DNA of 64,000 bases, from assembly GCA_029565735.1 (NCBI GenBank), contig JAKQNO010000138.1, forward strand, positions 18,195 through 82,194, read 5' to 3'. Below, piece after piece: positions 36 through 33,638 of the stretch; position 1 is the first letter of the stretch, and every line of letters starts with the position of its first letter. Under the pieces are notes generated by a model that saw only the letters and a program-made list of their open reading frames with translations, was not told the DNA's origin and did not search any database. The stretch is from a bacterium. GTDB lineage: Bacteria; Oederibacteriota; PGYV01. Position numbers and translations under genes: made by a program.

Positions 36-2060
36 TTAATCTCCATACAGTTTTTTTATCTGCGAATCACTGTAATAATGCCTTAATATTTCCTTATACT
101 TTTTCCCTTTTTCTGACATTCCTTTTAAACCGCGCTGGCACATGCCCACGGAATGGCCCCAGCCCGCGCCGTAAATATAGATAAATTTTATAAAACCTTC
201 ACTGTCTGACGCGTATTCCCATTTTATCACATTTGACCTTATTTTGCCCATAACCGAGCGTATGGGGTCAAACTTCACCTCGTAGACCCCTTTTTCGCCG
301 GTAATCCTTATGCGCGTCACCGCCCCTCCGCGCGCGCGTTTTAAAGGTTCCACTTTTTTAATCCTTCCTATGTCCTTCCTCTTCGCGACATATCTCTGAA
401 GGTCCTGCGCGTCAAGGTACCTTATCCACCTGAAGCTGGTCTCTGCCGCGCCTTCAGCCTTGCAGTAAACATCAGGCATGCTTCTTACGTATTCTTCCAA
501 GTCAAAGGGCGCAAGCGGGAATTTCCATTTCCAGTTAAAATCGCCGTCATACACCCCTTTTAGACTCTTTGACTCTTTATAACCCCAGACTTCAAAAACA
601 TCCTCGGTATGGCCGCCGCAGCAGTTGGAAAAAAAGGTGCTTAAAAGTTTGCCTTCAGCGTCATACAGCACCTCTCCGCGCGTGGCGTCCACCGCCGCTA
701 TTGTTCTTGCATTTTCGCCGCTAACCCCCTTATACACAGCGCAGTGCTGGGTTGCGCAGACATCATACCCGTCTTTTTTATGGCTGTTTAAATGCTTCAT
801 TGTGTAAGTCCTTGCGGAAACCGCCTGGGCTTTTAAAGCCTCTTCCGGCCAATCCGGCGGAATCTCCGCCGCTATAACGCCGTAAAGGTACTCTTCCATA
901 TTAAGGGAGTTTATGACATTTATCTTTCCCGATTTCTCCACAATCACAAAATCGCCCCTGTACGTCGTGTCCGCGCGCTCCGCCCAGTAAAATCCCTGCC
1001 CGTAAGCGATATTATAAAAAGCGGCCGTGGCGTTTTCATTTGCCGGTTTAATCACGGAATTTTCCCCGATAAGCGTTCTGGAATTGCCTTCTGAATCGGA
1101 TATAAATATGCCCTTTTTTTCCGCCGTCAGTTCATAATCCGTAACAGCCGCGCCTTTAAATAATTCTTCACCTTTATGATTGATTACGGCAAAATCCGAA
1201 CCGTGCTTAAAATGCACCTGACGCGCGCCTGTTATTATTCCCGCTTTAACCTGCTGAAAACCGGCGGATTCCTTTATACGGATTTTTTCCGGCGGGGTAT
1301 AGGCAGCGCGCCCGTCTGTCTTTCTTTTTTTATCATTTTCTATCATCTGTTTTATGGCGGGGACAAATTGAGCGAACTTCTGAGCTTTTTCTCTGGCTTC
1401 CGTGTCCTGCGTATCAACTTCCACAACCTTATTCCAGTATTTATAGGCGCTTATGAATTCCTGCTTTTTTTCGTGCAGCACGGCTATGCGCCTGTTAAGT
1501 TCGGTATAGGTCTTATCCTTATTAATGGCTTCTTTATAATACTCAAGGGCTTTATCAATGTCTCCGGTTTTTTCGTACGCTTCTGCCATTTTTATATATG
1601 AAATATTCCTGTACATATTTTCATCTATTGCCTGCAGAAATCTTATCTTTGCCTCTTCGTACCTTCCTGTTTCCAGAAGCATGCAGCCGTGCCAGTAAAG
1701 AACCTCCCAGTTGGCCATATTTTTAGACTCAAGGACGTTCACCATCTCTTCGCCTTTTGCCGCATCTCCCGTATAATAATACATCTTTGCAAGTTCAAAA
1801 TGAGCCCTGACTTCTTTGGGATTAAGCTTAAGGATTTCCAGATACGCTTCTATGGCTTTCTGATTTTCCCCAAACTCCTTAAATACCGAAGCAAGCGAAT
1901 AATAATTCGCCCTGTTTGAAGGGTTTTCCGCGGTTTTCAGCACATAATAAGCCGCGGTCTTTTCAGGATCCGCCCCATAATAAAAATCCTGCATATCCGC
2001 GGCGTTGGCGCCGGCAACGGCGCACAGCAGCGCGCCAAGAATAAAAAGAACCCGCGTCAT
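36..2060 (-). CDS. TPR-repeat protein fused to C-terminal SpoIID/LytB (amidase-enhancer) domain, with signal peptide
   Basis: N-terminal signal peptide [20 protein letters not shown]. Tandem TPR-like helices follow. The C-terminal half carries the SpoIID/LytB-type motif ([15 protein letters not shown]). An ATGA start/stop overlap with lptB suggests co-translation. Confidence 0.7.
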
Positions 2061-2794
2061 AGCGTGAACTTTTCACCAAGGTATATTTCGCGGGCTTTTT
2101 TGTCATGCGCAAGCTGTTCCGCGGGCCCGTGAAGAAGTATCTTCCCTTCGTACAGGATGTAAGCCCTGTCCGTGATTGAAAGGGTTTCCCTGACGTTATG
2201 GTCGGTAATCAGTATGCCTATATTTTTCTTTTTTAACTCCCTGATAATATTCTGTATGTCAAAAACCGCAATCGGGTCAATGCCCACAAACGGCTCGTCA
2301 AGCAGTATGAAGCTTGGGGACAGGACAAGCGAACGCGCTATTTCCGTCCTTCTTCTTTCCCCGCCCGACAGGGTGTAAGCTTTCTGCTTTGCAAGGTGCG
2401 ATATTTTAAATTCTTCAAGAAGCTGTTCAAGCCTGTGCTTTTTTTCCTCTTTTGTGATATCCATAAATTCCAGCACTGACATGATGTTTTCTTCAACGGT
2501 TAGGCGCCTGAAAATGGACGGCTCCTGCGAAAGGTAGCTTATGCCGTTTAACGCCCTTTTGTACATGGGCATGCCGGTCAAGTTCATCCTGCCGCCGTCT
2601 TTGTCTTCAAGGAATATGCCGCCGGCGTCGGGCTGAATTACGCCAAGCACCATATAAAAAGTTGTGGTCTTGCCCGCGCCGTTGGGCCCCAAAAGCCCCA
2701 CTATCTCGCCCTGCTTAACATCAACGCATACGTCGTTTACCACCCGTTTTTTATTATACGTTTTTACCAGGTGCTCTGTTTTAAGGTGTTTCAT
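2057..2794 (-). CDS. lptB: LPS export ABC transporter ATP-binding protein LptB
   Basis: Walker [13 protein letters not shown] signature LSGGERRR, Walker B ILLDEP. Context downstream of lptC/lptA and kdsCD. Confidence 0.85.
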
Positions 2795-3650
2795 ATTTTT
2801 CCGCCTCCTTGCGCGCTTTTTCAGCGTCTGTATAGTATATTTTTGACCAGATATTATCCTGCAGTTTTATCTTTTTTGTATCAGTGTCAATCACCGCCCT
2901 GTCGGACAAGAACAGGCTTTTTTTCCTTTTAAAAACCGGTTTGCCGGTAAGTTCAAGCTCTTTTTTTTCGTCATTATAAACTACCTTGTCCGCGAATGCC
3001 GTAATATCCTGATATTCCATCCTTACTCGGCTTTTGATTTTTTCAGCCGTTATTTCGTTTTTTACCGTGTCAAAATCCGCTTCATCGCAGTAAATTACAA
3101 TTGTATTTCCGTCAGCCGCCGCTTTTTTGGCTTTAACTTTCTCTGAAACCGTAATTACATTAAGCCCGTTGGAATAAGACATTTTTTTTGATTCAAGGTT
3201 AAGCCCGTACTCTTTGTAAAAAACCCGGACATCGCCATCAGCTTCCGCGCTTTTTTTGTAATCTTTGCTCTTTAACCTGTCGGCGTGTACCAGCGCGCCC
3301 GCGGCTTTTATTATTACATTCCCCGAAAAAACCGCCATTTTATCTTCAACCGCGAACTTCATATTATCGGCGCTTATGTTAAGTTCTTTTATTGTGGGTT
3401 TCTTTTTAGCCGCAACAGGCGAAGGAGAAGGCGACGGCTTAACCGCAGTAACTGCCGGAGTCACTGCCGCAGGTAATGAAACAACAGTTGTCGGCACAGG
3501 CGTTAATCCGTCTTCACCTGTTTTTTTTGCTTCCTGTATCCTTTCGGAAACATTCTTAAAATATTCATTTTCGTATTTCGCGTCATCAATTTTAAAACAT
3601 CCCGCGGTTATAACAAGCAGGGCGATAAACAAAGCGGCTTTTTGCATCAC
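2781..3650 (-). CDS. lptA: LptA-like periplasmic LPS transport protein (OstA-like fold) with Pro/Ser/Ala-rich linker
   Basis: Signal peptide. Shares the DRAVIDTDT motif with the upstream LptC-like paralogue. Sits between lptC and lptB as in the canonical kdsD-kdsC-lptC-lptA-lptB cluster. Confidence 0.55.
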
Positions 3651-4198
3651 TCGCCCACATCCACTGCCTTTAATGTCACCCTTCGCTTTATTTCAAGATT
3701 TTTAAATCCGGCGTCGGTTTCAAGCCCTATGCCTTTTAATACCGTGCCGTCCCTTGTAACCGTCACTTCTTCTTCGGTATACATTTTTTTGCGCCTGTCA
3801 TCCCAAAAAAGCCTGTTGGTCCGCACAACCGCGCCGTCGCCGGAAATCGCCTTTACATTGCCGGTAATTTCCATAAAATTTGTGTCAGTATCTATTACGG
3901 CGCGGTCGCCGTAAAGCACGGTTTTGCTGTTATTAGCGTCCAGGTAATTCATCACAAAACCCTGCGCGTAAGCTTTCTTTTTTAATTCAAAAACCTGCGC
4001 GCCTTTGGCGTTGACTTCCCACTTCACTTCGCCTTTCTGCGCGGATTTAAGGGTAAAATTTTCCATTACAAAATTAGGGACAGATTCCACGCTGTCGCCC
4101 ACGGGAAGGCTTGGTTTTATCTTTTTTTCCCTGCCGCAGCCGGCAAATAACACCGCCGCCGTAAGCGCCAGTAATAAAATTTTTGTTATCCTGTTCAC
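3647..4198 (-). CDS. lptC: LptC-like LPS transport protein (lipoprotein-type N-terminus)
   Basis: Start reassigned to a GTG that overlaps the lpxL TGA stop (GTGA coupling). Product begins MNRITKILLLALTAAVLFAGC (lipobox-like) and has an OstA-like C-terminal region. Position is upstream of lptA. Confidence 0.5.
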   Translation of the reverse strand: MNRITKILLLALTAAVLFAGCGREKKIKPSLPVGDSVESVPNFVMENFTLKSAQKGEVKWEVNAKGAQVFELKKKAYAQGFVMNYLDANNSKTVLYGDRAVIDTDTNFMEITGNVKAISGDGAVVRTNRLFWDDRRKKMYTEEEVTVTRDGTVLKGIGLETDAGFKNLEIKRRVTLKAVDVGE

Positions 4199-5118
4199 AG
4201 TTTTACGCCCTTTTCTTCCATTTCTTTTTCCACCGTCATCCTGAACCTTCTGTGGACCCATATCCATTGTTCCGGATATTTAAGTATGAATTCCGACAAC
4301 TGCCTGTTATATTCCGCCGCAAGCTGCTCTGTTGTTTTATCCGCCGTTTCTATGGGCGCGTTTATCTGTATTCCGTAATAATTATCAGGCCTTCTGAAAA
4401 TGCACACCGTTAAAAGGGTAAGCCCAAGTTTTTTTGCAAGTAAAGCCGGCCCGGAAGGCGTCTTTGCCATTGTTCCCAGAAACGGCGCGTAAACGCTTTC
4501 AACGCTTGTATCCTGGTCCGACAGAATGCCAAAAATCATACCCTGCCTTAAATCCTTTATCATCACCCTTATGTCGTCATCCTTTAAAAATATCTTAACG
4601 CCGGTTTTGGTGCGGGCCGAATTGACGGCTTTATCAATACGCGGGTCAAACATCCGCTTTGCCGCGGCGCCCGCTATGTTGCCGTTTAACGCGGTAAAGT
4701 GCGCCAAAAGCTCCCAGTTAGAAAGGTGAAGCGTGACAGCTATCACCCCTTTTTTTGTCTCTTTGGCGCTGTTAAAGTGTTCAAGGCCGTGCGTTTCCCT
4801 GACCATATTTTTTATTTTTGAAGCGGGCCATACCGTAAATTTTAAGAACTCAAAAAATCCCCTGCCGTAATTGCGTATGTTGCGCTTTGCCAGCTGTTTT
4901 TTTTCTTTTGCGGAAAGCGCGCTGCCGTAAACTATATCAAGATTTCTGTAAAGCGTGCGTTTGTCTTTTTTAAGAAAAAGAAAGACAAACAGCGCGAAAT
5001 ATTCGCAGGCTTTTGCCCCGGCTTTCCACGGGATAAAAAATACAAGGAACCTTGCCCCCTGTATAAACAGGAAAAATATATAATTTCTAAATGCCTTCAG
5101 CTTCTTTTTCATCATCAA
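4195..5118 (-). CDS. Lipid A biosynthesis (Kdo2-lipid IVA) acyltransferase, LpxL/HtrB family
   Basis: N-terminal TM helix. HX4(D/E) acyltransferase motif in the form TLHLSNWELLAHF, typical of the LpxL family. Embedded in the kds/lpt operon. Confidence 0.7.
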   Translation of the reverse strand: MMMKKKLKAFRNYIFFLFIQGARFLVFFIPWKAGAKACEYFALFVFLFLKKDKRTLYRNLDIVYGSALSAKEKKQLAKRNIRNYGRGFFEFLKFTVWPASKIKNMVRETHGLEHFNSAKETKKGVIAVTLHLSNWELLAHFTALNGNIAGAAAKRMFDPRIDKAVNSARTKTGVKIFLKDDDIRVMIKDLRQGMIFGILSDQDTSVESVYAPFLGTMAKTPSGPALLAKKLGLTLLTVCIFRRPDNYYGIQINAPIETADKTTEQLAAEYNRQLSEFILKYPEQWIWVHRRFRMTVEKEMEEKGVKL

Positions 5119-5641
5119 GGTACCTTTTTACCGCCGTATCCCAAAGCCCGCGCGCTTTTAATATCATGTCAATTACTTCCCTTACGCAGCCGCGGCCTCC
5201 GCCGTTTTTGCAGATATAAAGCGCTGCTTTTTTTGCTTCAGACGCCGAATCAGCGGGCGCAGCGCCAAAACCGCAGCGCCTTAAAACCGGAATATCTATT
5301 ATTTCGTCCCCGATGAAGCACACCTCTTCATCCTTAAGGTTAAGTTTGCCTTTCAGTTCGGCGTACGGGCCAAGTTTGTTTAAAGCGCCCTGATACACGT
5401 GCTGAATTTTCAGTTCTTTCGCCCGAAACGCTATCGCCTTTGAAAACCTTCCGCTGATAACGGCAAACTGAAGCCCGGCGTGGCGGCCAAGGGCAATGCC
5501 TGTGCCGTCCTTGACGTTATACTGCTTGAATTCGGTTTTATTATTACCTATTATTATTCCGCCGTCGGTTAAAACGCCGTCAACATCCAGGCATACAAGT
5601 TTTATTTTTGAAAGATTTTTGAATTTTTTTGAAGCGGCCAC
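5087..5641 (-). CDS. kdsC: KDO 8-phosphate phosphatase KdsC (HAD family)
   Basis: HAD motif I VCLDVDGVLTDGGI. Size ~180 aa. Immediately downstream of kdsD. Confidence 0.75.
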   Translation of the reverse strand: MAASKKFKNLSKIKLVCLDVDGVLTDGGIIIGNNKTEFKQYNVKDGTGIALGRHAGLQFAVISGRFSKAIAFRAKELKIQHVYQGALNKLGPYAELKGKLNLKDEEVCFIGDEIIDIPVLRRCGFGAAPADSASEAKKAALYICKNGGGRGCVREVIDMILKARGLWDTAVKRYLDDEKEAEGI

Positions 5642-6633: not shown

Positions 6634-7359
6634 TTATTCCGGAACGTAAAGAATCCTTGCGCAGTTGGCGCAGTATTCTATGTTCTGCCTTTTTCTAAGT
6701 TTTATAACCATCTGCGCGCGTATTGCCATCCTGCAGCCGTCGCAGCTTCCGTCGCCGCGCGCGTCGCGCGTGACCGACGCAACGGCAACGCCGCCTTTGG
6801 CCTTTCTTATCTTTTCATATTTTTCAAACCACTGTTTATCCACTACAGCGGCTTTTTTTTCACGCTCCGCGGCAAGCGCGGCAATACCCGAATTCTTTTC
6901 CGCTTTCTGCGCTTCCAGCGTTTTTATTTCAGCGCCAAGCCGTTCTTCTTCTTTTTTAAACAAACCTTCCTGTTCCTTAATCCAGATTTTTACCTCTTCT
7001 TCTTCCTCTTCAATTCCAAGAATCTTATCTTCGGTCTTTCTTATTTCATCCTTATCCCTGGCAATTTCATCCTGAAGCGCCTTAAAAGCGTCATTTGTTT
7101 TTATTGACGCCCCCTGCCCTTCTTTTTTCAGAATATCAGCTTCCCTGGACTTTATTTCAAGGTCAAGCGCCGCTTTTTTGCGTTTAAATTCGTCAAGCCT
7201 TGCTTTTTTTTCGTTGAATTCCGCCTTAAATTCCTCTATTCTTTTTTTCTTTTCTTCAATTTCCGCGTCAATCATCCGCCCCTCTTTTTCCACTGCCAGA
7301 ACCGCATTGTCGGCCTTTTGCAGGTCAATAAGCGTGTTTAATATTTCGCCTTCTGTCAT
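6634..7359 (-). CDS. COG1579/DUF164-type coiled-coil protein with C-terminal C4 zinc ribbon
   Basis: Long Lys/Glu-rich coiled coil ending in CDGCRMAIRAQ...CANCARILY. Start moved to ATG (MTEGEILNTL), which has a GGAGG SD. The ORF-track GTG start lacks an SD. Confidence 0.65.
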   Translation of the reverse strand: MTEGEILNTLIDLQKADNAVLAVEKEGRMIDAEIEEKKKRIEEFKAEFNEKKARLDEFKRKKAALDLEIKSREADILKKEGQGASIKTNDAFKALQDEIARDKDEIRKTEDKILGIEEEEEEVKIWIKEQEGLFKKEEERLGAEIKTLEAQKAEKNSGIAALAAEREKKAAVVDKQWFEKYEKIRKAKGGVAVASVTRDARGDGSCDGCRMAIRAQMVIKLRKRQNIEYCANCARILYVPE

Positions 7360-7392
7360 TATTCCACCCTCCGGCTTTTTAATAAAAACATT

Positions 7393-7430
7393 ATATTTTA
7401 ACACTTTTATGGGGTTTATTAAAGGCGAAA
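7393..7430 (-). promoter_or_regulatory. Conserved 38-nt promoter element (copy A) with extended -10 TGTTAAAAT, upstream of the COG1579-LPS operon
   Basis: On the minus strand the sequence reads TTTCGCCTTTAATAAACCCCATAAAAGTGTTAAAATAT. It is 36/38 identical to a second copy at 9381..9418 and ends ~30 nt before the operon start codon. Confidence 0.4.
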
Positions 7431-7473
7431 TTTATGGAAACAACTATTGAAATTTTCCCGTTAAAAACTGCTC

Positions 7474-8877
7474 TTATTTAAGGCTTTTACCATACTTAAC
7501 ATCATCCCACCAGGCGGTTCCCTCGCCTATAAGCGACAAAGATATGCCCACTATCACAGTACCTTTTGGCACCGGAGTTATAATATCTATTCCGGTCCAT
7601 TCCGTATCTGCGGAAAAAGTCTTTGAATTCACCCCTCCCAATATACCGCCTTTGCGGTCAACAAAATTCAAAGACACCCCGGCGCCTTCTTTGACTCCGG
7701 CGGTCTTTATCTTGCATGAAAAATAAGCTTTTCCGCCGCCCGTTGTTTTTATGGCCTGGCCCCACCACTTGTTCTTTCCGGGGCCTTCGGTAGAAGTAAG
7801 TTTAAAACTTGCACGGCCTTCCGCCGCGTTTGCTGTGTCACGTTCCCATTTATTGCCTTCCGGCGCAATCAGGTCGCAGCGCCTCCAGTATTTTGGCATT
7901 TTATCATTGCCGGCAAGCTCCGCGCCTCCGTTCTTCAGCTTTAGCGGCATCATTAACCATCTGCGCAGCGAATTCATTGTGGAATATTTCCAGACAATCT
8001 TTTTATTCCTATTAATTTCAATCAGCCTTGAATGCTGGGCGTCAGCAATAAGAATATTTCCGCCGGGTAGCTGTTCGGCCTGGTACGGCATGGACAGAAT
8101 GCCTTTGCCATATTCAAACAAAGTATTGCCGGCATAATCAACCTCAATTATCCTGTTACCATAAGAATCAGATATTATAGTATTATTGTTTTCAAGCCTG
8201 CGGGCAAAACGGGGCCAGTTTAAACCCCTTGAAAACTGCCATACAATACCGCCTTTTTTGTCAACCTCAATCACCCTGTTATTATCAGAATCAGCAATAA
8301 TGATATTTCCGTTTTCAAGTTCCCGGGGAGCGTGCTGTTTGGAAGCGCCTTTATACGACCGGTATACCTGTCCGTTTCTGTCAGTCTCCACAACCGCGCT
8401 GTTAAATCTGTCAGAGAGCAGAAAATGCCCGTTGCCCATCTCTATAACATGGTTTGGATAATCTATTTTTGACCCGTCTGATAAAAGGCCTGTTCCCCCG
8501 CTCCACTGCGCACTTGTCCATACGGTATTGCCGGCGGGAGAAACTTCAACAAGACGGTCATTATTTGTATCAGGTATTAAAATATTTGAGTTTTTTAGTT
8601 TTATCGCGCTGTGCGCAAAACGCAGGCCCGAATCATATTTCCATAAAACTTTACCGGCTCTGTTTATAATAAAAACTTTGGAATTTTTATCTTCCCAAAG
8701 AAGCCCGCCTCCGTCGGTAACAAGTATATTTCCGTCGTCCAACACCTGAAATCCAAGCGGGCGTTCCAGTTCAAATTTTGAAGGGTAAAAGATAAAAGCA
8801 GCTGCAGCAGCCGTTATAATTAAGAAAATTATAACAAATATTAAAGCGGCGCCGCCCCTTTTAAGAGGCAGTTTCAT
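7474..8877 (-). CDS. Membrane-anchored beta-propeller protein of the arylsulfotransferase(ASST)/NHL-like type with C-terminal beta-sandwich (CBM-like) domain
   Basis: N-terminal signal anchor. About 6 repeats of the pattern NGN-ILI-D-NNR-IEVD-G-IVW. About 130-aa C-terminal domain. The start overlaps the upstream lipoprotein stop (TAATG). Confidence 0.5.
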   Translation of the reverse strand: MKLPLKRGGAALIFVIIFLIITAAAAAFIFYPSKFELERPLGFQVLDDGNILVTDGGGLLWEDKNSKVFIINRAGKVLWKYDSGLRFAHSAIKLKNSNILIPDTNNDRLVEVSPAGNTVWTSAQWSGGTGLLSDGSKIDYPNHVIEMGNGHFLLSDRFNSAVVETDRNGQVYRSYKGASKQHAPRELENGNIIIADSDNNRVIEVDKKGGIVWQFSRGLNWPRFARRLENNNTIISDSYGNRIIEVDYAGNTLFEYGKGILSMPYQAEQLPGGNILIADAQHSRLIEINRNKKIVWKYSTMNSLRRWLMMPLKLKNGGAELAGNDKMPKYWRRCDLIAPEGNKWERDTANAAEGRASFKLTSTEGPGKNKWWGQAIKTTGGGKAYFSCKIKTAGVKEGAGVSLNFVDRKGGILGGVNSKTFSADTEWTGIDIITPVPKGTVIVGISLSLIGEGTAWWDDVKYGKSLK

Positions 8878-9332
8878 TAATATCCCATAAAACGAAAGTC
8901 AAGTGTCACGTTTTCCGCTGCCGCTATTGTGACAGCCGACTTTGTCATGGAATAATACGTCCAGCCCGCATTTGCCTCGCCGGGAACATCAGCCCAATCC
9001 GCAGAAGCCGTCCTTGTCTGCCCATAAAAAGCATCTTCCGGTATCCCGGCAACAACATCATAAGTGCCCGGAACTATGGAGTTTATATGATAAAAACCGG
9101 ATGAATCAGTTGAAGTGTTTTTATAAAGCGTAGAACTTTGGTACATACTTATCTGCGCGGAAGGATAGGCATTCATTGGATTTGTATTATAATCGCAGCA
9201 AATCGTCTTGTATACGTATCCCGACAATGAACCCGTATTGGAACTTGATGTAGGATTGCTGTTATTGCTGCAGGATACAATTACAAAAACAGCTGCAATT
9301 GCACTAACCGCTAAAATTAACCACCTTTTCAT
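8877..9332 (-). CDS. Secreted lipoprotein with carboxypeptidase-regulatory-like (prealbumin/Cna-B-like) domain
   Basis: MKRWLILAVSAIAAVFVIVSC lipobox. The motif GFYHINSIVPGTYDV is typical of CarboxypepD_reg-like folds. Start moved to the second ATG, which has a GGAG SD. Confidence 0.45.
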   Translation of the reverse strand: MKRWLILAVSAIAAVFVIVSCSNNSNPTSSSNTGSLSGYVYKTICCDYNTNPMNAYPSAQISMYQSSTLYKNTSTDSSGFYHINSIVPGTYDVVAGIPEDAFYGQTRTASADWADVPGEANAGWTYYSMTKSAVTIAAAENVTLDFRFMGY

Positions 9333-9380
9333 ATCGCCACGCTCCATATAATATAGTATTTAATTAATACGCTTATAAAA

Positions 9381-9418
9381 ATATTTTAACACTTCTATTG
9401 GGTTTATTAAAGGCGAAA
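9381..9418 (-). promoter_or_regulatory. Conserved 38-nt promoter element (copy B) upstream of the lipoprotein/ASST-like operon
   Basis: Minus-strand sequence TTTCGCCTTTAATAAACCCAATAGAAGTGTTAAAATAT, 36/38 identical to copy A. Lies ~50 nt upstream of the start codon. Confidence 0.4.
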
Positions 9419-9467
9419 AGTTTTGTTTTTTGGGTGAAGTTATTTAAATCAGGACAAGAAATACCTC

Positions 9468-9803
9468 TTATCCGCCACCGACCGCCATACCAAATAGAAA
9501 AGATAAAATTATCGGCGATAAAGCAATTATCAAAACTGCAAAATAAACAAAAAATTGCAATGTATCCCACTTTAATTCTTTTAAATTCACTACAGCTTTT
9601 CTTATCATCAGGATTGGCATTAAAATAAACATTGCAACAATAACATAAATCATCCCCGCTATATCAAAAATATTCTGAAACATAGTAAACTCTAAGTTAT
9701 TAGAAAACCTATACGCAAAAAATAGCATCCATCCAAAGCCATGAATAATCAAAGGAATACAAATGTATTCTAATAACATTTTAACTTTTCTATTCATTGC
9801 CAT
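9468..9803 (-). CDS. Small hydrophobic membrane protein (3 predicted TM helices), unknown function
   Basis: ORF with three hydrophobic stretches. Sits in a conspicuously AT-rich ~280-bp segment just upstream of the GNAT gene. Confidence 0.3.
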   Translation of the reverse strand: MAMNRKVKMLLEYICIPLIIHGFGWMLFFAYRFSNNLEFTMFQNIFDIAGMIYVIVAMFILMPILMIRKAVVNLKELKWDTLQFFVYFAVLIIALSPIILSFLFGMAVGGG

Positions 9804-9847
9804 CTTTCACCACATTTAAGATATTTTTACCTGCTATATTTCCAGTT

Positions 9848-10327
9848 TCATATTTCCAATCTCATTACCCAATCAGCCTTGTTCTGCTTTATCTTTTTAA
9901 AGCCCATCCTTTCATAAAGCCTTACTGACGGGTTTTTCATGTCCGTGCTCAGCGATAAAGCATAATAACCCTTTATATGCGCAAGGGCGGTTAATTCTTT
10001 AAGCAGCAGCGTGCCTATACCCCTGTTTCTGAATTCTTTTCTTACAGCCACGGAAATCTCCGGAATTCCCGCTTCAACAAAACCATACCCTTTATCATTT
10101 TCCGGGAATAGAATATACCACGCCGCGCCTGCAGGTTTATCATTATCAAGTGCTATGACTCCCCCGCCATATGGCATAATGTATCTGACGTACCTGTTTA
10201 TTTCCGGAATCTTTAAAAGTTCGGCCGGCGGGGGTTTTAAAGATGGATCTTCAAAAAACACCATTTCATAAAGCATCTCTTCAAGAAACGCGTAATCGCT
10301 CCCCTGAATCTCCCTGATATTAATCAA
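9848..10327 (-). CDS. GNAT family N-acetyltransferase
   Basis: Acetyl-CoA binding motif RNRGIGTLLL (Q/RxxGxG/A). Size 159 aa. Confidence 0.75.
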   Translation of the reverse strand: MINIREIQGSDYAFLEEMLYEMVFFEDPSLKPPPAELLKIPEINRYVRYIMPYGGGVIALDNDKPAGAAWYILFPENDKGYGFVEAGIPEISVAVRKEFRNRGIGTLLLKELTALAHIKGYYALSLSTDMKNPSVRLYERMGFKKIKQNKADWVMRLEI

Positions 10328-10504
10328 ATCATCACCTGCTATTCTAAAATATGGCGTAACAAAAGCATCTCTGCTAATCAGCTAACCGGTTTGAACACAG
10401 CGCGGCTGCCGGAAATATATAAACAAACCATACGGCGTAAACTGAAAAAATATACCAGGTTCCCGTAAAACGTATGGACGGAACAAAACATAAATACCCG
10501 AAAA

Positions 10505-10540
10505 ATATAAAAGGGGCGGAAATATCCGCCCCTTTTATTT
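10505..10540 (-). terminator. Rho-independent terminator downstream of the RND pump gene
   Basis: Hairpin GGGGCGGATATTTCCGCCCC followed by TTTTATATTTTT on the minus strand. Confidence 0.5.
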
Positions 10541-10553
10541 AGCCCTCAAAAAA

Positions 10554-13500
10554 TCAGCTGTGCTGATTTTCCGCCTCTTCTTTTAACATTTTCTTTTCTT
10601 TCCTCTTTAACATCTTGTTTTCCACCCACTCATAAACAACAGGCACAACAACAAGCGTTAAGAAAGTGGATGTGATAAGCCCGCCGATGACCACTATTGC
10701 CAGCGACTCATTCCCTTTTGCCCCTTCACCCATTGACAGCGCTATGGGAAGCATACCGAATATCATGGCAAACGACGTCATAAGAATAGGCCTTAAACGT
10801 ATAGGCGCGGCGTGCAGCAGCGCTTCCCTGATATCCATTCCTTCTTCGCGCTTTTTATTTGTAAAATCAAGAAGCAGAATCCCGTTTTTGGCTACAAGTC
10901 CCAATACCATAAGAAGCCCGATAAACGCGAACATATCAAGCTGATATCCGGTTATCAGTATCCCGATAAAGGCTCCGATTATGGCAAGCGGAATTGAAGT
11001 CATAAGGATAAGCGGCTGTATAAACGAATTGTACAGGGACGCCAGTATCATATACATAAACAGCACGGCAAGAAGCATCGCGCCGCCCATCTGTACTACA
11101 AGCTCGCCAAACTGCTCGCTTTGCCCGCCGAATGTATATCTGTACCCCGAAGGCAGTTTAAGCTCTTCTTTAAGCCTTTTTTGAATCTTGCCGTTAACTT
11201 CAATGACGGAATAACCCGGCGCAAGAGAAGCCGTTACAATCACGTTTCTCATCTTGTCTTCCCTGCGTATTTCAACAGGGCCCGCGTAGTATTTAAAAGT
11301 ACAGACAGAACTTAACGGTATCTTTTTACCCATCCTGTTTGTCAGAATCATATTTCTGATGTCATCCGTCATCCTTTTGTTGGACTCATTCAGTTCAATA
11401 TTGATATTATATTCTTTTTCATCTTTCCTGAACGTGGAAATATCCGAACCTGATACAAGGGCCCTTAACGTGGAGCCCACTTCGTATACCGACATCCCAA
11501 GTTTTTCAGCTTTTACAGGGTCAACTGAAATTACCATTTCAGGTTTCCCCGGTTTGTAGGATATGTCCGTAGACGCGGTTCCGGGCGTTTCTTCTATCAT
11601 CTTTTTTATCTTCCCGGAATATTCAGCAAGCACTTTTAAGTCATCGCCGAAAATTTTCACAAGAATCGGGGTGCTCATTTCATCGTTGCCGCTCATTTTG
11701 CCGCCCATTCCCTGCGAAACAGTGACATTCATAAACACGTCAATCCTGTTATCCTTTACGTATTTCATTACTTTCTGTATAAACTGTTCGTTTGAAACCT
11801 TTCTTTCGGTCACCGGCAGAAGCGAAATCATTATGGAACCGGTATTGCTTCCGCCCGCGCCGCCAAAACCCGTGCCCGTATCGCCGATGCTGGCAAAATA
11901 AGTCTGTACTTCTTTCTGCTGGACTATAAATTTTTCCACTTCAAGCATGTATCCGTCTATTTTTTGAACAGGCGCGCCGGGATAAGTCTGCATGCTCAGA
12001 TTTACAATATTAATGTTCTGATTCATAAAACCCATCTTCATGAAGGGCAATAACATAAAGCTTCCCACAAAAAGCAGTACCGTCGTTATTAATACCGCTT
12101 TTTTTCTGTTAAGCGCCCAGTGCAGTATTTCGCCATAAACCCTGTTGCCTTCATCATATATCTGATTCCATTTTTTTGTAATTCCGTCCATGAATTTTGA
12201 AAAACCTTTTTTATCCGCGCTTTCCTTCTCTTTCTTATACCAGTACGCGGATAACATGGGCGCCGTTGTAAACGCGTCCAGAAGGGATATTGCAAGGGCA
12301 AAAGCTACCGTAAATCCAAACTGTTTGAAGAACTGCCCTATTACGCCGGTTAAAAACGATATAGGTAAAAAAACAGCCATAATAGAAAGGGTTGTAGATA
12401 TAACCGAAAGTGCCACTTCATTGGTCCCCTTTTCAGCCGCTTCCTTGGGAGGCATGCCCAATTCTATATGCCTGAAAATATTTTCGCGCACAACTATAGA
12501 GTCATCTATAAGAAGCCCGACCGCAAGTGATAATGACAGAAGTGTAATGACGTTAATGGAAAACCCGGACAGTGATATCAGGAAGAAAGCGCCGATAATG
12601 GAATTCGGAAGCGCAATCGCCGTAATAATGGCGGACCTGAAATTGCCCAGAAACAGCCACACTATAAGAAGCGCAAGTACGGCGCCTAAGACAATATTTT
12701 CCTGAACTCCCGAAACACTTTTCTTAATTCTTATGGTTGTATCAATAATGGTCTTTATCTTAATATCGGCCGGAAGCTCTTTTAAAGTTTTAGCTATCTG
12801 TTTAGTGACCTTATCCGCCGTCTCTACCGAATTGACGCCGCTCTGTTTAAATACAGCCATGAGCACCGCGGGCTTTGTATTTACCCTTAATTTGCCGGTT
12901 TCTTTCTGAAGAGTCCATTCAACTTTTGCAATGTCCTTAAGCCTTACGATTTTGCCGGTTGTGGAAGATACAGGCAGAAGCCCTATTTCATCAATTGTTT
13001 TAAATTCACCTATGACCCTTATAGCCATATTTTTTTCAACGCCATCAATATCGCCGACCGGATAGCTTAAATTTCTGGCTTTAATCGCCCCGCTTATCTG
13101 GTTCATATTAAGGCCGTTTGCCTGTAAAAGCGCCTTGTTAACCGTTACTTTGACAACCTTTTCCCTGCCGCCAAAAACATAAACCGCGGCCACGCCCTGC
13201 GTCTGCTCTATGGCAGGCTTCATTACGTCTTCCATTATTTCCTGGAGCATGGTCTGATCGCGGTCCGCTTCAATGGAGTAGAAAGCAATGGGGATGTCGC
13301 TTAACGAGAAACTCTGAATTATGGGATCCTGTATATCTTCGGGAAGGAACGACTTAATTCCGTCCACTTTTTCCCTGACTTTCTGTTCCGCGTATTTCAC
13401 TTCCACGCCAAGTTTAAAAGAAGCGGTTATAACGGCCAGATTTTCCCTTGCCACGGCATTTATGGTGTCAATGCCTTCAAGGGTGGCAAGCTGCTCTTCC

Positions 13501-13700
13501 ATAGGTTTGATTATCAGCGATTCCACATCTTCGGCCGACGCTCCCGGATAGACAACAGAAACGCTTATTGTCGGAAATTCAATGTTAGGCATAAGCTCCA
13601 CCGGCAGGTTTATATAACCAATAAAACCCAGTGTTATTATTGAAAGCACCATCATTACGACCAGTACCGGCCTTTGGATGGCTAATTTTGCTATATTCAT
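10554..13700 (-). CDS. RND family efflux transporter, inner-membrane permease (AcrB/HAE1-like)
   Basis: 1048 aa with 12-TM RND architecture, two large periplasmic loops and N-terminal MNIAKLAIQRPVLVVMMVL. Downstream of the MFP and TolC genes. Confidence 0.9.
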   Translation of the reverse strand: MNIAKLAIQRPVLVVMMVLSIITLGFIGYINLPVELMPNIEFPTISVSVVYPGASAEDVESLIIKPMEEQLATLEGIDTINAVARENLAVITASFKLGVEVKYAEQKVREKVDGIKSFLPEDIQDPIIQSFSLSDIPIAFYSIEADRDQTMLQEIMEDVMKPAIEQTQGVAAVYVFGGREKVVKVTVNKALLQANGLNMNQISGAIKARNLSYPVGDIDGVEKNMAIRVIGEFKTIDEIGLLPVSSTTGKIVRLKDIAKVEWTLQKETGKLRVNTKPAVLMAVFKQSGVNSVETADKVTKQIAKTLKELPADIKIKTIIDTTIRIKKSVSGVQENIVLGAVLALLIVWLFLGNFRSAIITAIALPNSIIGAFFLISLSGFSINVITLLSLSLAVGLLIDDSIVVRENIFRHIELGMPPKEAAEKGTNEVALSVISTTLSIMAVFLPISFLTGVIGQFFKQFGFTVAFALAISLLDAFTTAPMLSAYWYKKEKESADKKGFSKFMDGITKKWNQIYDEGNRVYGEILHWALNRKKAVLITTVLLFVGSFMLLPFMKMGFMNQNINIVNLSMQTYPGAPVQKIDGYMLEVEKFIVQQKEVQTYFASIGDTGTGFGGAGGSNTGSIMISLLPVTERKVSNEQFIQKVMKYVKDNRIDVFMNVTVSQGMGGKMSGNDEMSTPILVKIFGDDLKVLAEYSGKIKKMIEETPGTASTDISYKPGKPEMVISVDPVKAEKLGMSVYEVGSTLRALVSGSDISTFRKDEKEYNINIELNESNKRMTDDIRNMILTNRMGKKIPLSSVCTFKYYAGPVEIRREDKMRNVIVTASLAPGYSVIEVNGKIQKRLKEELKLPSGYRYTFGGQSEQFGELVVQMGGAMLLAVLFMYMILASLYNSFIQPLILMTSIPLAIIGAFIGILITGYQLDMFAFIGLLMVLGLVAKNGILLLDFTNKKREEGMDIREALLHAAPIRLRPILMTSFAMIFGMLPIALSMGEGAKGNESLAIVVIGGLITSTFLTLVVVPVVYEWVENKMLKRKEKKMLKEEAENQHS

Positions 13701-13742
13701 ACAATCGCTCCTTAAATTATTATTAAATTAGAATAATCCGCT

Positions 13743-14744
13743 TTACTTCTTTTCCGGCTGTACCGGAGTTTCTTCTTTTTTAGCGGCGCTTTTTTTATCT
13801 TCTTTCCCGCCCTTTACATCAGCCGCCGGTTTGGCCGGCTCATTCCCGGTGCTTATTAAAACCCCGTCAGACAGTTTAAACGTTCCGTCAGTTATAACTT
13901 CCGTGCCTGCCGCAAGCCCGTCGCCGGAAATTTCTATCATATCTTTGTTCCTGTATCCCGCTTTAACGGTTGTCTGTTTTGCTTTGCCTTCCACGGCCGT
14001 AAATATATAATCGCCGCTTTCCGTCATTATCACGGCTTTTTCCGGAACCATAAAACCCTTTATATCTTCAAGCAGTATTTCCGCGTTGACAGACATTCCA
14101 AGTTTTAATTTATTCCCGGTATTTGGAGCTTTAACCACAATGGTGCCTGACATAATATCGCTGTCAATCACAGGCGGAACAGAATATACTTCCCCCCGGA
14201 CGGAAAGCGACGCGTCTTCCACAAATGATATTATCGCCTTTTGCCCTTTTTTGATTTTAACAAGGTCTTCCTGCCCGGCATTAAAAACAAGTTTTACCTT
14301 TGAAGGGTCCGCTATTTCCGCGACCGGCATTGCCGGGCTTACAGCTTCGCCCCTGTCTATGCAGTAAAGTTTTGTAACCATTCCGCCCACAGGCGCGGTT
14401 ACAGGCGCAAGTTCATACTGGTATCCGACCATGTCCCTGTCAATGTAGACAAGCACATCCCCTTTATTCACATAACTTCCTTCAGCCACGGCATTTCTTG
14501 AAAACTTGCCCGGCACTATAGGAAACACTTTCACCTGCGGGTCCCCTTCAATTACCCCCTGCACTGCAAAATATTTGGCAATCTGCCTTGTTTCAAGTTT
14601 AACGGTCGCTACGTTATAAACAAGCTCCGCCGGTTTTTTTCCGCCTTTCGCTATGCTCTGTCCAATCCTGAAAATTATCAGCACGGCAATGATTATAAGC
14701 GTAATCTTTAAAACATTCTTAAGCAGGTTTCTTGTCTTGTCCAT
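13743..14744 (-). CDS. RND efflux periplasmic adaptor (membrane fusion protein, HlyD/AcrA family)
   Basis: N-terminal TM anchor, lipoyl/beta-barrel-type MFP organisation, Lys-rich tail. Operon position between TolC-like and RND. Confidence 0.8.
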   Translation of the reverse strand: MDKTRNLLKNVLKITLIIIAVLIIFRIGQSIAKGGKKPAELVYNVATVKLETRQIAKYFAVQGVIEGDPQVKVFPIVPGKFSRNAVAEGSYVNKGDVLVYIDRDMVGYQYELAPVTAPVGGMVTKLYCIDRGEAVSPAMPVAEIADPSKVKLVFNAGQEDLVKIKKGQKAIISFVEDASLSVRGEVYSVPPVIDSDIMSGTIVVKAPNTGNKLKLGMSVNAEILLEDIKGFMVPEKAVIMTESGDYIFTAVEGKAKQTTVKAGYRNKDMIEISGDGLAAGTEVITDGTFKLSDGVLISTGNEPAKPAADVKGGKEDKKSAAKKEETPVQPEKK

Positions 14745-14761
14745 TTATTTTCTCCCGTGTT

Positions 14762-16051
14762 TTATTCTATGAAATTTTTAAGTTTCTGCATTGATGTAAG
14801 GTAATTATTTAACGCGTTATAATAGTTTGTCTTTGCCCTCATTAGCCCTATTTCCGCGTTCATAAGGTCAACGCTCTGAATCAGGCCGTTTTTGTAGCTT
14901 TCTGACGCTATCCTGTACCCTTCTTCCGCCTGCTTTATCAGGTCCCCGGCCGCTTCAATCACTTCTGCGCTTTCTTCCATCCCTGTGTAAAGCTGGTCAA
15001 GCTGTATTTCAAGCAGGTTTACCGTGTTTTCCTTTGTAAGATTCTGCTTTGCTTCCTGCGCTGCAGCTTCTTTAAATGCGTAGACGTTTTTGAAACCGTT
15101 GAAAAAAGTCCACTGCAATCCGACCATGACATCCCACATTCCGTACCAGTAACTTTTTTCGCTGTGAAAAGCGGAATCAGCGGAAATGTAACTGTAGTTT
15201 GCCGCCAGGGCTATATTGGGCAGAAACATCGCGCCGGTAAGATATTTTTTGTACTCGGATATCCTTGAGGCGGATTCAATAAGTTCCCTGTCATCGCTTT
15301 TTTCCCTGAATTTATTTTTTATGTCATCCGCTGTCAGTTCAAGTTTTTTATAATCAGGCTCTCCGGTCAGTTCAACTTCCCGGTCAAGGCTGATGCCCGC
15401 CGTGTTTTTAAGCATCTGCATTGAAAGCAGGTATGTGTCTTCCGCTTTTCTTGCGTCAGGTTTTGAATTAGCGTACTGAACCTGTGCCTGAAGCACTTCA
15501 AAGTTGGAAGCCTGCCCGCTTTTGTACTTTGCCTGAGTAATCCTGTAGTATTCTTCATTGCTCTTTAAGCTCTGCTTTCCGGCGTTCATAAGTTCTTTTG
15601 TTATAAGGGCCCCGTAATAAGCCGATATAACATCAAGATCAAGTTTTTCTTTTGCTTTTTTATAGCTGATAGACGCTATTTTGTAAGCCTCTTCCGCCAT
15701 TTTAAAGCCAAAAACCGTTTTCCCGAACGTAAACACAGGCTGCTGAAGCGAAACCTGCGCTGCGTACCACGGCCTCATCGGCATCGTTGAAAAAGTATTG
15801 TAAACAGCCTGATAGCCGCCTGAAAGCGAAACCGACGGCCCAAAAGACGCGGCCGCCTGGCCAAGCTGAGCTTCGGCTATTTCTTTGTCAAGCTGCGCCA
15901 TCTTAAATTCCCTGTTATTGTCAGCGCACATTTTCGCGAAATCTTCAAAAGAAAGTGTTAACACAGTCTCTTCCGCGTAAACAGCCGCTGATAGAAACAC
16001 GGATACTAAAAGAACCATAAAATATCTGATTAAATTCATTGGTCTCATCAC
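14762..16051 (-). CDS. TolC-like outer membrane efflux protein
   Basis: Signal peptide, two-repeat coiled-coil/barrel organisation of ~430 aa, operon context. Confidence 0.75.
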   Translation of the reverse strand: MMRPMNLIRYFMVLLVSVFLSAAVYAEETVLTLSFEDFAKMCADNNREFKMAQLDKEIAEAQLGQAAASFGPSVSLSGGYQAVYNTFSTMPMRPWYAAQVSLQQPVFTFGKTVFGFKMAEEAYKIASISYKKAKEKLDLDVISAYYGALITKELMNAGKQSLKSNEEYYRITQAKYKSGQASNFEVLQAQVQYANSKPDARKAEDTYLLSMQMLKNTAGISLDREVELTGEPDYKKLELTADDIKNKFREKSDDRELIESASRISEYKKYLTGAMFLPNIALAANYSYISADSAFHSEKSYWYGMWDVMVGLQWTFFNGFKNVYAFKEAAAQEAKQNLTKENTVNLLEIQLDQLYTGMEESAEVIEAAGDLIKQAEEGYRIASESYKNGLIQSVDLMNAEIGLMRAKTNYYNALNNYLTSMQKLKNFIE

Positions 16052-16058
16052 GGCCTCC

Positions 16059-16628
16059 TTAATAATATATTTTCCAGGCTGCGCCTGTTTTTACAGTGTG
16101 AATTTCTTTTTCATTAACATCATAAAAAGCCGGCCTTTCAATGCTTAACCTTAGAACAGCAATATCTGCCACGTTTAAGTTAACACCGATACCAAAATTG
16201 TAATAGCCGCCGGTCCAGCTTATGTCCTTATAATACATAGGCGGCATAGCAGCATCGTACATATGCATACTGCCAAGGGTCATTCCGGTTTCAAAAAACA
16301 AATCCGGAAATACCGGCCATTCAGGGAAAATATTGCCGCGGATACCCGCGTAAAGCGGCGCGTATACCGCGCAGGAATTTGAATCCTGCCTGGCTACAAA
16401 CACGTTATATGAACCGCCCAGATATGCTTCACCCCATTTAAATACGGATACTCCCGCTTTCGCGTCAAAGACCGGGGTGTCAAATACACCGTAGCCTTCC
16501 AGCATCCTGCTCTGCGGACCTGTTACAGTTCCGTAATTTAGGCCAAATTCCGTAAACACCCACTTTTCCGCCTTTACAGGAAAAGCGATAAACAGCAGCA
16601 CCACCAATAAAGCAGATAATTTTTTCAT
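16059..16628 (-). CDS. Small outer-membrane beta-barrel protein (OmpW/OmpA-like barrel)
   Basis: Signal peptide, alternating amphipathic beta-strands, C-terminal aromatic residues (WKIYY). Confidence 0.4.
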   Translation of the reverse strand: MKKLSALLVVLLFIAFPVKAEKWVFTEFGLNYGTVTGPQSRMLEGYGVFDTPVFDAKAGVSVFKWGEAYLGGSYNVFVARQDSNSCAVYAPLYAGIRGNIFPEWPVFPDLFFETGMTLGSMHMYDAAMPPMYYKDISWTGGYYNFGIGVNLNVADIAVLRLSIERPAFYDVNEKEIHTVKTGAAWKIYY

Positions 16629-16630
16629 TT

Positions 16631-17071
16631 TTATACCATCCTTTCAAGGTAATCATTCATTTTAACAAGCATTTTAACTGCCTGTTTTTTCTCGGTCCCG
16701 GAAAGCACGTCCAGAAGCTTCCCCATTATTCCGTCCATCTCTTTTAAGTGGCACAGCACTTCCTTTTTTGTCCTGCCCGAAACAGATATCCATACGGTCC
16801 TTCTGTCTTTTTCATCGCTTTCCCTTATAAGCAGCCCGTTCTTTACCAGCTTATTTACCATGCTTGTCATAGTCGGAAGTTTTACACCTTCGCTTCTTGC
16901 AAGGTCGCCCATTTTCATCCTGCCGTTTTCAAAAACACGCCCCAGAATATACATCTGCGCCATGGTCACTTCATGAACGCCCTTTACGCAGTTTTTATGG
17001 GCAAACTTTTTTTTGACAAGCTGCCCGATCCTGCGGATGTATTCTATCAATTCCCTTGATGTCACATCCAT
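16631..17071 (-). CDS. MarR family transcriptional regulator, first gene of the efflux operon
   Basis: Winged HTH (MAQMYILGRVFENGRMKMGDLARSEGVKLPTMTSMVNKLVKNGL). Size 146 aa. Confidence 0.75.
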   Translation of the reverse strand: MDVTSRELIEYIRRIGQLVKKKFAHKNCVKGVHEVTMAQMYILGRVFENGRMKMGDLARSEGVKLPTMTSMVNKLVKNGLLIRESDEKDRRTVWISVSGRTKKEVLCHLKEMDGIMGKLLDVLSGTEKKQAVKMLVKMNDYLERMV

Positions 17072-17117
17072 TTTAGCACCTCTAATTATTTATTTAACTA
17101 ATTGTTAGATGGGCTAA

Positions 17118-17145
17118 GTATATTGATAAAAAACTATTTTGTCAA
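17118..17145 (-). promoter_or_regulatory. Sigma70-type promoter TTGACA-N17-TATACT for the marR-efflux operon, with overlapping imperfect palindrome
   Basis: Minus strand TTGACAaaatagttttttatcaaTATACT. An inverted repeat TTGAYAAAA...TTTTRTCAA overlaps the -35/-10 (a likely MarR operator). Confidence 0.45.
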
Positions 17146-17181
17146 CAAAAAAAAATATTTTTTTTAAACCAGTTTTATATT

Positions 17182-17982: not shown

Positions 17983-18071
17983 AGTTGCCGATATTGCGAT
18001 AATAAATAACGCCGCCAGAATAAAAATTACGGATATTGCCGCTGTTTTTTTTATATGAAGCCTCCGGTATT

Positions 18072-18114
18072 TTTAATAAAAAAAGGCGCGGGATGCTTTG
18101 GGCACCCCGCGCCT
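18072..18114 (-). terminator. Rho-independent terminator after the GT2 gene
   Basis: Stem GGCGCGGG...CCCGCGCC (8 bp, extendable) followed by a T9 tract on the minus strand. Confidence 0.55.
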
Positions 18115-18131
18115 TTGAACTTTGCTTTAAA

Positions 18132-19347: not shown

Positions 19348-19375
19348 ATTATATCAGAAATGGCGCAGTTTTCAA
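19348..19375 (-). promoter_or_regulatory. Extended -10 sigma70 promoter (TTGAAA-N16-TGaTATAAT) for the GT2 gene
   Basis: Minus strand TTGAAAactgcgccatttcTGATATAAT, located ~75 nt upstream of the GT2 ATG. The GT2 start has AGGAGG as SD. Confidence 0.4.
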
Positions 19376-19395
19376 GGGGAAAATCTTTAAAGGCG

Positions 19396-27573: not shown

Positions 27574-27648
27574 GCCTGACTGATTACAGTTATTTTAATA
27601 AATATTCCCGTTAAAAACAATCCAATACAAAGTAATAATAATCAGTTT

Positions 27649-33564: not shown

Positions 33565-33594
33565 ATGTACACCCCTTATTGATTGATTTAATCA

Positions 33595-33638
33595 GAAACC
33601 TGCATTATATTTTTTAATGGTGGGCCCGAGACGAATCG
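33595..33638. repeat. 44-bp perfect direct repeat, copy 1 (duplicate of the tRNA-Arg 3' end plus 3' flank)
   Basis: gaaacctgcattatattttttaatggtgggcccgagacgaatcg is identical to 33767..33810. It contains the last 21 nt of the tRNA including CCA. Confidence 0.7.

Follow-up and report, generated by a model that had tools for sequence, protein, structure and literature searches.

The stretch analysed here, referred to as the window, comprises 64,000 nt of contig JAKQNO010000138.1 (assembly GCA_029565735.1), and proteins identical to those encoded on it are named Candidatus Goldiibacteriota bacterium (metagenome-assembled genome) at NCBI. It holds two copies of a 38-nt element. The first is located ahead of an operon for the synthesis and export of lipopolysaccharide (LPS), whose first gene encodes a CT398-like protein, and the second ahead of a two-gene cassette that encodes a lipoprotein and an ASST-like beta-propeller. 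We consider it probable (at roughly 0.7) that the element is the core promoter of the LPS operon, of the extended -10 kind and read by a housekeeping sigma-70-type factor, and that this promoter was copied ahead of the inserted cassette. The two copies are the following.

7393-7430, minus strand: copy 1 of the 38-nt element, TTTCGCCTTTAATAAACCCCATAAAAGTGTTAAAATAT; candidate native core promoter (~-42 to -5) of the LPS operon
9381-9418, minus strand: copy 2 of the 38-nt element, TTTCGCCTTTAATAAACCCAATAGAAGTGTTAAAATAT; candidate duplicated promoter ahead of the lipoprotein and propeller cassette

Sequence and uniqueness of the element

The copies are identical at 36 of their 38 positions, including the complete 19-nt block at the 5' side, and lie 1988 bp apart from start to start. 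Both have the same orientation as the gene downstream. The CT398-like gene starts at ATG 7359, 33 nt past the end of copy 1, and the lipoprotein gene at ATG 9332, 48 nt past the end of copy 2, which puts the -10 at 35 and 50 nt before the ATG, respectively; the start codons downstream of both copies are preceded by a ribosome-binding site of the GGAG type. An earlier note on this DNA had already described the duplicated element, its spacing, its location 30-50 nt upstream of two first genes and the gene content of both units (CT398-like to SpoIID, and lipoprotein/propeller), and all of these hold, with the minus strand as the coding strand. The similarity between the copies is confined to the 38-mer, as semi-global alignments of the flanks scored like shuffled sequence (downstream p=0.44, upstream p=0.90). 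A longer duplication, running through the 5' untranslated region and the ribosome-binding site, was considered on basis of the resemblance of GGAGGGTGG to GGAGCGTGG and dropped given the same shuffle test (p=0.44).

Copies were searched for in around 74 kb of the source genome, i.e. the 64-kb window and 10 kb beyond the window start (L109). When up to three mismatches were allowed, the 19-nt block was found twice in the window, in copies 1 and 2, against 0.13 expected matches. For a 37-nt degenerate consensus of the element, the next best site on either strand of the window had at least 11 mismatches, no fewer than shuffled sequence gives. The number of copies in the ~74 kb is thus two, and no third was found. 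In the public collections searched there were none: the exact 38-mer pattern (with two N) had 0 matches in 185,579 GTDB species genomes, a collection that does not contain the source genome, and the 10 matches of the 19-mer in JGI metagenome contigs were all due to chance, with unrelated sequence downstream and no extension. An Rfam search of 7200-9600 and a plasmid similarity search with the element returned no match. Within the species, the element and the arrangement around it are base-for-base identical in at least 10 conspecific contigs from several metagenomes, including JGI 3300010355 Ga0116242_10000373 and ENA ERZ27257431.

Because the 38-mer is without matches in the species genomes and the metagenome matches of the 19-mer are all chance, the element does not represent a widespread repeat. 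This bears on the possibility that the pair has no promoter role at all and is either a recombination scar, with the copies as att-like direct repeats that date from the integration of the cassette, or a member of a repetitive extragenic palindromic (REP) or miniature inverted-repeat transposable element (MITE) family. We hold this to be the most improbable of the readings considered. As to the REP/MITE variant, which the earlier note had named as the finding that would undo its own interpretation, the 38-mer has no palindromic stem or hairpin (folding energy -0.4 kcal/mol, z +0.2 to +0.3) and no terminal inverted repeats, and the database searches given above recovered neither a family nor further copies. 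The scar variant is discussed together with the cassette.

Predicted promoter structure

The relatives used for comparison are designated by their contigs: L102 and L103 belong to genus-level relatives, L104-L108 to more distant ones in which the first gene of the operon is 45-51% identical. In both copies a consensus scan finds TTAATA-16-TAAAAT plus an upstream TG, and with this placement the 38 nt span ~-42 to -5. Read 5' to 3' on the minus strand, the element consists of TTTCGCCTTT, followed by AATAAACCC(C/A)ATA(A/G)AAG, TGT TAAAAT and AT. Its predicted parts are listed below.

7395-7403, minus strand: extended -10 of copy 1, TGT-TAAAAT; the same in copy 2, L102 and L103, TGC-TAAAAT in L108
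9383-9391, minus strand: extended -10 of copy 2, TGT-TAAAAT
7417-7422, minus strand: weak -35 of copy 1, TTAATA, with a 16-nt spacer; aligned with TTGACT in L108 and TTTATT in L102/L103
9405-9410, minus strand: weak -35 of copy 2, TTAATA
7421-7430, minus strand: invariant upstream block of copy 1, TTTCGCCTTT, ~-42 to -33; possible contact of a factor

The -10 hexamer TAAAAT matches TATAAT at five of six positions and is unchanged in five sequences (copies 1 and 2, L102, L103 and L108). At the aligned -35 position the agreement with the consensus is 4/6 in the window (TTAATA), 3/6 in L102/L103 (TTTATT) and 5/6 in L108 (TTGACT). Transcription would accordingly be predicted to start near 7389 and 9376. 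The other intergenic promoters of the window are of the textbook type, TTGACA-N17-TATAAT, and lack the 5' block. The extended -10, the weak -35, the 19-nt block and the absence of that block from ordinary promoters had all been recognized before and are borne out here.

Conservation in relatives

Homologs of the CT398-like protein that are 77-78% identical (P0122 and P0123) are encoded on contigs L102 and L103. Directly 5' of the CT398-like/kdsD genes of L102, at 1369-1406, we found TTTCGCCTTTTATTAACCCCTTAAAAGTGTTAAAATAG, which is identical to copy 1 at 34 of 38 positions, and at the same location in L103, at 721-758, CTTTCGCCTTTTATTAACCCCCTAAAAGTGTTAAAATAT (TTTCGCCTTTTATTAACCCCCTAAAAGTGTTAAAATAT), with 35 of 38 positions identical. 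The comparison with related genomes that had been proposed earlier thus places the element at the orthologous position, before the LPS operon. Between the window and L102/L103, the adjacent gene has kept identity at only 44-52% of its four-fold degenerate sites, which is near saturation. Considering that 34-35 of the 38 positions were kept against this background, the whole 38-mer, including spacer and upstream block, is under purifying selection. The positions that vary among copies 1 and 2, L102 and L103 are 11, 14, 20, 21, 24 and 38, and correspond to the -35 hexamer, the middle of the spacer and the last base; the TTTCGCCTTT and AACCC blocks are unchanged in all four.

The conservation ends abruptly at the 5' side, as upstream of ~-43 there is no similarity among the window, L102 and L103. 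The gene upstream of the LPS element also differs: the window has the propeller gene there, L102 a gene for a DUF11/CHU_C surface protein and L103 a GNAT gene. The possibility that the gene in L102 is a propeller as well was ruled out. The GNAT protein of L103 shares 66% amino-acid identity with the GNAT protein of the window, and the alignment of the intergenic DNA that follows this orthologous gene in the window and in L103 was not significant.

In the more distant relatives L104-L107 the operon was kept, and the promoters are unrelated and mostly canonical. In L108, where the first gene is 51% identical, the upstream sequence gives a gapless alignment with the element; it is CCTTGACTAATCCCCCAAAAATGCTAAAATAT, equivalent to TTGACT-N16-TGC-TAAAAT. 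The TTTCGCCTTT and AACCC blocks are not conserved in L104-L108. A search for relatives based on KdsD recovered only sequences of at most 53% identity from many phyla and was unsuited to footprinting. The near-consensus -35 of L108 at the position of TTAATA speaks most strongly for a promoter of the housekeeping sigma factor in which the -35 decayed and the TGn was kept, and on the aligned sequences this is the most likely interpretation.

It has to be weighed against a promoter for an alternative sigma factor dedicated to envelope genes, whether extracytoplasmic function (ECF)/sigma-E-like, sigma-32, sigma-54 or sigma-28, which we judge very unlikely. The lptA-lptB promoter inside lptC of Escherichia coli has been reported to be sigma-E dependent. 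That these two genes have a promoter of their own (PMC8727689) could be taken to favor such a factor, and so could the combination of a weak -35 with a conserved upstream block and the resemblance of CCCCATAA in copy 1 to the sigma-32 -10 motif CCCCATNT. The latter resemblance does not hold up, because CCCCAT occurs in copy 1 only, the other three sequences having CCCAAT, CCCCCT and CCCCTT, and no TTGAAA is present 13-15 nt upstream of it. With respect to the other factors, none of the five aligned sequences contains GGAAC...TCNAA (sigma-E), TGGCAC-N5-TTGC (sigma-54) or TAAA-N15-GCCGATAA (sigma-28). Moreover, TGn-TAAAAT is invariant and the -35 of L108 is of the sigma-70 consensus type at the aligned position.

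The cassette and the origin of the second copy

The segment between the two copies and its upstream neighbor contain the following genes.

8877-9332, minus strand: cassette gene 1, lipoprotein with a CarboxypepD_reg-like fold; partner of the propeller in L098, L100 and L101
7474-8877, minus strand: cassette gene 2, ASST/NHL-like beta-propeller with an N-terminal hydrophobic anchor
9468-9803, minus strand: ORF111, AT-rich open reading frame (ORF) for a membrane protein of 111 amino acids, between GNAT and copy 2; 29.5% GC; absent in L103

The lipoprotein and propeller genes, which occupy 7474-9332 (minus strand) in the window, form an adjacent or overlapping pair that was also found in L098 (5567-7398), L100 (5550-7425) and L101 (191-2105). 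Together with a JGI contig this makes four different and unrelated contexts, in which the propeller is 53-58% identical; the source names of the homologs include Spirochaetes, Firmicutes, Planctomycetes and others. Judged from these sequences, the lipoprotein and the ASST-like propeller constitute a portable two-gene module. No similar promoter was found beside the distant cassette homologs (L098-L101), which are from high-GC organisms and have unrelated upstream regions. In L098 (GCA_964482955.1) the cassette lies just 3' of a tRNA-Pro(GGG) gene, which is followed by a partial repeat of the 3' part of the tRNA (within 5170-5566), as is typical of an integration site.

The order of genes in L103 is GNAT - element - CT398-like and there is no cassette at the locus. 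The corresponding order of the window is GNAT - ORF111 - copy 2 - cassette - copy 1 - CT398-like. Copies 1 and 2 have in common an A at position 11 and an A at position 14, and both positions are T in L102 and L103. Since A11 and A14 are common to copies 1 and 2 only, the duplication, or a later homogenization of the copies, was specific to the lineage of the window. The two differences between the copies lie in the middle of the spacer: position 20 adjoins position 21, which varies among the orthologs, and position 24 is constant in the orthologs. A conspecific strain without the cassette was not found, as it is carried by 10 of 10 contigs. Two further ideas, an ancestral flank retained upstream of copy 2 and a target-site duplication around ORF111, were rejected as the alignment to the intergenic region of L103 was not significant. 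The duplication presumably proceeded from the LPS operon to the cassette.

More genes appear to have arrived at this location. ORF111, which is hydrophobic, has a GC content of 29.5%, against 42-47% for all of its neighbors, and is without a Pfam match; it was probably acquired separately and recently from a foreign source. In L105 (2475-4000) and L107 (8724-10000) a GT2 glycosyltransferase gene directly abuts the LPS operon. Its counterpart in the window (18132-19271) is separated from the operon by 10.8 kb (within 7360-19271), an interval that holds genes for DUF6544, a MarR regulator with a 189-aa (amino acid) protein and OEP-MFP-AcrB efflux, GNAT, ORF111 and the cassette. The spot upstream of the LPS promoter is an insertion hot spot.

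The arrangement in the window could at first sight suggest the recombination scar mentioned above, as the direct repeats bracket exactly the two-gene cassette (a 1950-bp segment) and a clear att-like duplication of the 3' end of a tRNA-Arg gene is present elsewhere in the genome. A scar would, nevertheless, not be expected to occur as a single copy that is conserved at the orthologous promoter position of relatives without an adjacent cassette, which is the situation observed. In addition, there is no integrase or transposase gene in or beside the 2-kb segment; only the lipoprotein and propeller genes are found between the repeats, and the neighbors are ORF111 and GNAT.

Expression of the two units and constraints on the element

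On the promoter interpretation, the element (~-42 to -5) would be read by a housekeeping sigma-70-type factor through TGT-TAAAAT, a 16-nt spacer and the decayed -35 TTAATA. Its ancestral role in the genus-level Candidatus Goldiibacteriota clade would be to drive CT398-like - kdsD - kdsC - lpxL - lptC - lptA - lptB - TPR/SpoIID. In the lineage of the window, the portable cassette lies directly upstream of the LPS operon, and with a second copy of the core promoter alone before it, the cassette would be transcribed from the copy of the LPS promoter. Transcripts from copy 2 would probably read through into the LPS operon, so that the two copies would act as tandem promoters. Our scan found no terminator-like site in 7431-7473, between the stop codon of the propeller gene (7474) and copy 1. 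The interval from ORF111 to copy 2 has none either, and the closest strong one is at 10507-10538, 3' of the AcrB-like gene.

The earlier note had proposed that a dedicated regulator or alternative sigma factor coordinates a regulon in which LPS export is linked to secreted proteins. This part of it is not sustained. The copies are paralogs and in L102 and L103 the ancestral element fronts no unit other than the LPS operon, L103 has no cassette at the locus and elsewhere the cassette resides in unrelated contexts, copy 2 shares the window-specific bases with copy 1 and the ~74 kb searched contains no further copy. For the alternative sigma factor, the canonical TTGACT of L108 at the aligned position points to the housekeeping factor instead. 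Because the promoter was copied, the cassette would be co-expressed with LPS synthesis and export and no dedicated regulon is needed; the co-expression of both units thus likely follows from the duplication and does not in itself speak for a regulon.

Several points weigh against this account. The promoter activity of the element is deduced from sequence, position and conservation. The account does not explain the copying of exactly 38 nt, nor does it tell the original from the new copy. Further copies are possible elsewhere in the genome, beyond the ~74 kb covered. Finally, the -35 is weak (4/6) and yet the upstream block and the C-tract of the spacer are invariant, whereas a plain sigma-70 promoter needs neither. 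A factor or RNA pairing may constrain these two blocks.

The first of these options, which is possible though clearly the less likely situation, is that TTTCGCCTTT (-42 to -33) and AACCC (in the spacer) form the site of a transcription factor, either an activator of the class II type that replaces the weak -35 or a repressor. This would add to the promoter interpretation rather than replace it, and the cassette would have come under the control of the factor once promoter and operator had been copied. The distribution of the six variable positions, which in the four sequences all fall outside the flanking blocks, is consistent with such a site, as is the retention of the blocks where neutral sites are near saturation; ordinary promoters of the window depend on a consensus TTGACA instead. 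On the other hand, the 38-mer has no dyad or direct-repeat symmetry, a third copy was not found in ~74 kb, the blocks were not kept in L104-L108 and no regulator gene adjoins the element, the MarR gene (16631-17071) belonging to the efflux genes. A more far-reaching version, which we consider rather unlikely, is that the blocks represent the operator of a new envelope-biogenesis regulator of this Goldbacteria clade (or an unusual sigma contact) and that the copying wired a foreign surface module into an LPS regulon. In that case, the genome should contain more members of the regulon at other loci.

The second option involves the start of the first gene, where the reverse complement of the upstream block is found.

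7343-7353, minus strand: GAAGGCGAAAT, reverse complement of the upstream block, in codons 3-6 of the CT398-like gene

In read-through transcripts that begin further upstream, AUUUCGCCUUU could pair with GAAGGCGAAAU (codons 3-6), such that the Shine-Dalgarno sequence and AUG are looped and translation is damped. Transcripts that begin at the operon's own start would lack the 5' arm, and the pairing would account for the conservation of the block. The window, L102 and L103 all have an 11-bp complement (10 Watson-Crick pairs and one G-U), which is the predicted minimum-free-energy stem in each (z -2.0, -2.95 and -2.8, respectively), and the synonymous sites of GAA GGC GAA are unchanged among them. 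The pairing was, however, found post hoc, and as both arms are invariant there is no covariation to examine. The 3' arm is moreover coding sequence, and the corresponding match of copy 2 is limited to 7 bp including G-U (z 0.1), with none of significance in L108. We therefore think it improbable that the pairing is what maintains the block, and continue to regard the element as a probable housekeeping core promoter.

The LPS operon and its first gene

The gene content of the operon is given below.

6634-7359, minus strand: CT398/COG1579-like coiled-coil Zn-ribbon protein, operon gene 1, 241 amino acids
36-6604, minus strand: rest of the LPS operon, in an order that is kept in L104-L107
5642-6604, minus strand: kdsD
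5087-5641, minus strand: kdsC
4195-5118, minus strand: lpxL
3647-4267, minus strand: lptC
2781-3650, minus strand: lptA
2057-2794, minus strand: lptB
36-2060, minus strand: TPR-SpoIID

A public gene call (JGI, 256 amino acids; L091 11474-12244) opens the CT398-like gene at GTG 7404, which is inside the element. This 256-aa frame was ruled out by a stop codon in the same frame of L103, and the true start is therefore ATG 7359 (241 amino acids). ATG 7371 was considered as the start codon as well and proved wrong.

The coiled-coil Zn-ribbon protein of the CT398/HP0958 family is the conserved first gene product of the kdsD...lptB operon across the clade (window and L104-L108). A link between the family and RpoN has been described for Chlamydia and Helicobacter, and proteobacterial rpoN lies after lptB. 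Considering these connections, the association of the family with the same operon may not be accidental.

Other repeats in the window

A second short repeat is located between the stop codon of the cassette and copy 1.

7450-7468, minus strand: GTTTTTAACGGGAAAATTT, short repeat other than the 38-nt element; recurs at 27600-27618

Its consensus is GTTTTTAACGGGAAWATTT, of which the window has two near-exact intergenic copies, both on the minus strand: that at 7450-7468 lies 20 nt upstream of copy 1 and that at 27600-27618 between genes for an ABC permease and an FGE-sulfatase-like protein. Two more sites have three mismatches (18270-18288, minus strand; 19368-19386, plus strand), which makes 4 sites against 0.22 expected by chance. 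The repeat is absent from L102 and L103.

The tRNA-Arg(CCT) gene at 33790-33865 (minus strand) is the one with the att-like duplication. A repeat of the last ~21 nt of the gene plus the ~39 nt that follow is found at a distance of 172 nt (33579-33638 and 33751-33810; 88% over 60 nt), and the two repeats bracket a G/C-rich insert of 112 nt. The arrangement resembles the attL/attR-type remnant that an integration at the 3' end of the tRNA would leave.

Comparison with known systems

The element shares with the extended -10 (TGn) sigma-70 promoters the TG one base 5' of a near-consensus -10 (TAAAAT) and the poor -35, and in this class the -35 becomes dispensable. What the class does not predict are the conserved bases 5' of the -35 and the C-tract of the spacer, both conserved like the -10.

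The core gene set of the operon is the same as that of the kdsD(yrbG)-kdsC-lptC-lptA-lptB locus of E. coli, which likewise has more than one promoter. Unlike that locus, the operon of the window has the CT398-like gene at its start, lpxL inside and TPR-SpoIID at its end. The second promoter also differs in nature: in E. coli it is a distinct internal one in lptC, from which lptA-lptB are transcribed (PMC8727689), whereas the candidate in the window is a duplicate located 2 kb upstream. Set against the E. coli locus, the element has nothing like the sigma-E consensus.

The closest known concept is that of the putative mobile promoters, defined as similar upstream sequences before non-homologous genes in one genome (Matus-Garcia, Nijveen & van Passel 2012, PMC3488235). 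In those cases, as in the present one, a promoter would have been used again to switch on genes that are new at a site, and the copies of the element are flanked by unrelated genes on both sides (CT398-like versus lipoprotein downstream, propeller versus ORF111 upstream) and by unalignable sequence. The cited survey required an alignment longer than 50 nt with at least 80% identity, within -150 to -50 of the start codon. With 38 nt at 95% identity and no significant extension into the flanks, the element falls below that length, and the survey would miss it because it is 38 nt long and located at -34 to -86. A further difference from the surveyed cases is that comparison with relatives reveals the donor promoter, its ancestral state as a single copy and the inserted cassette that received the second one.

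The element would therefore provide a natural example of promoter reuse in which the single-copy ancestor is found in relatives, the recipient cassette is portable and the copied piece is a 38-nt core. It would illustrate how a newly placed cassette gains expression, probably together with LPS biogenesis, in a candidate phylum without genetics, and offers a first, predicted, promoter sequence for experimental use in Goldbacteria. Its value is mainly evolutionary, with the misplaced GTG start as a gain in annotation, and no new class of regulation is involved: the duplication is the same phenomenon as promoter propagation and adds another example of a known event.

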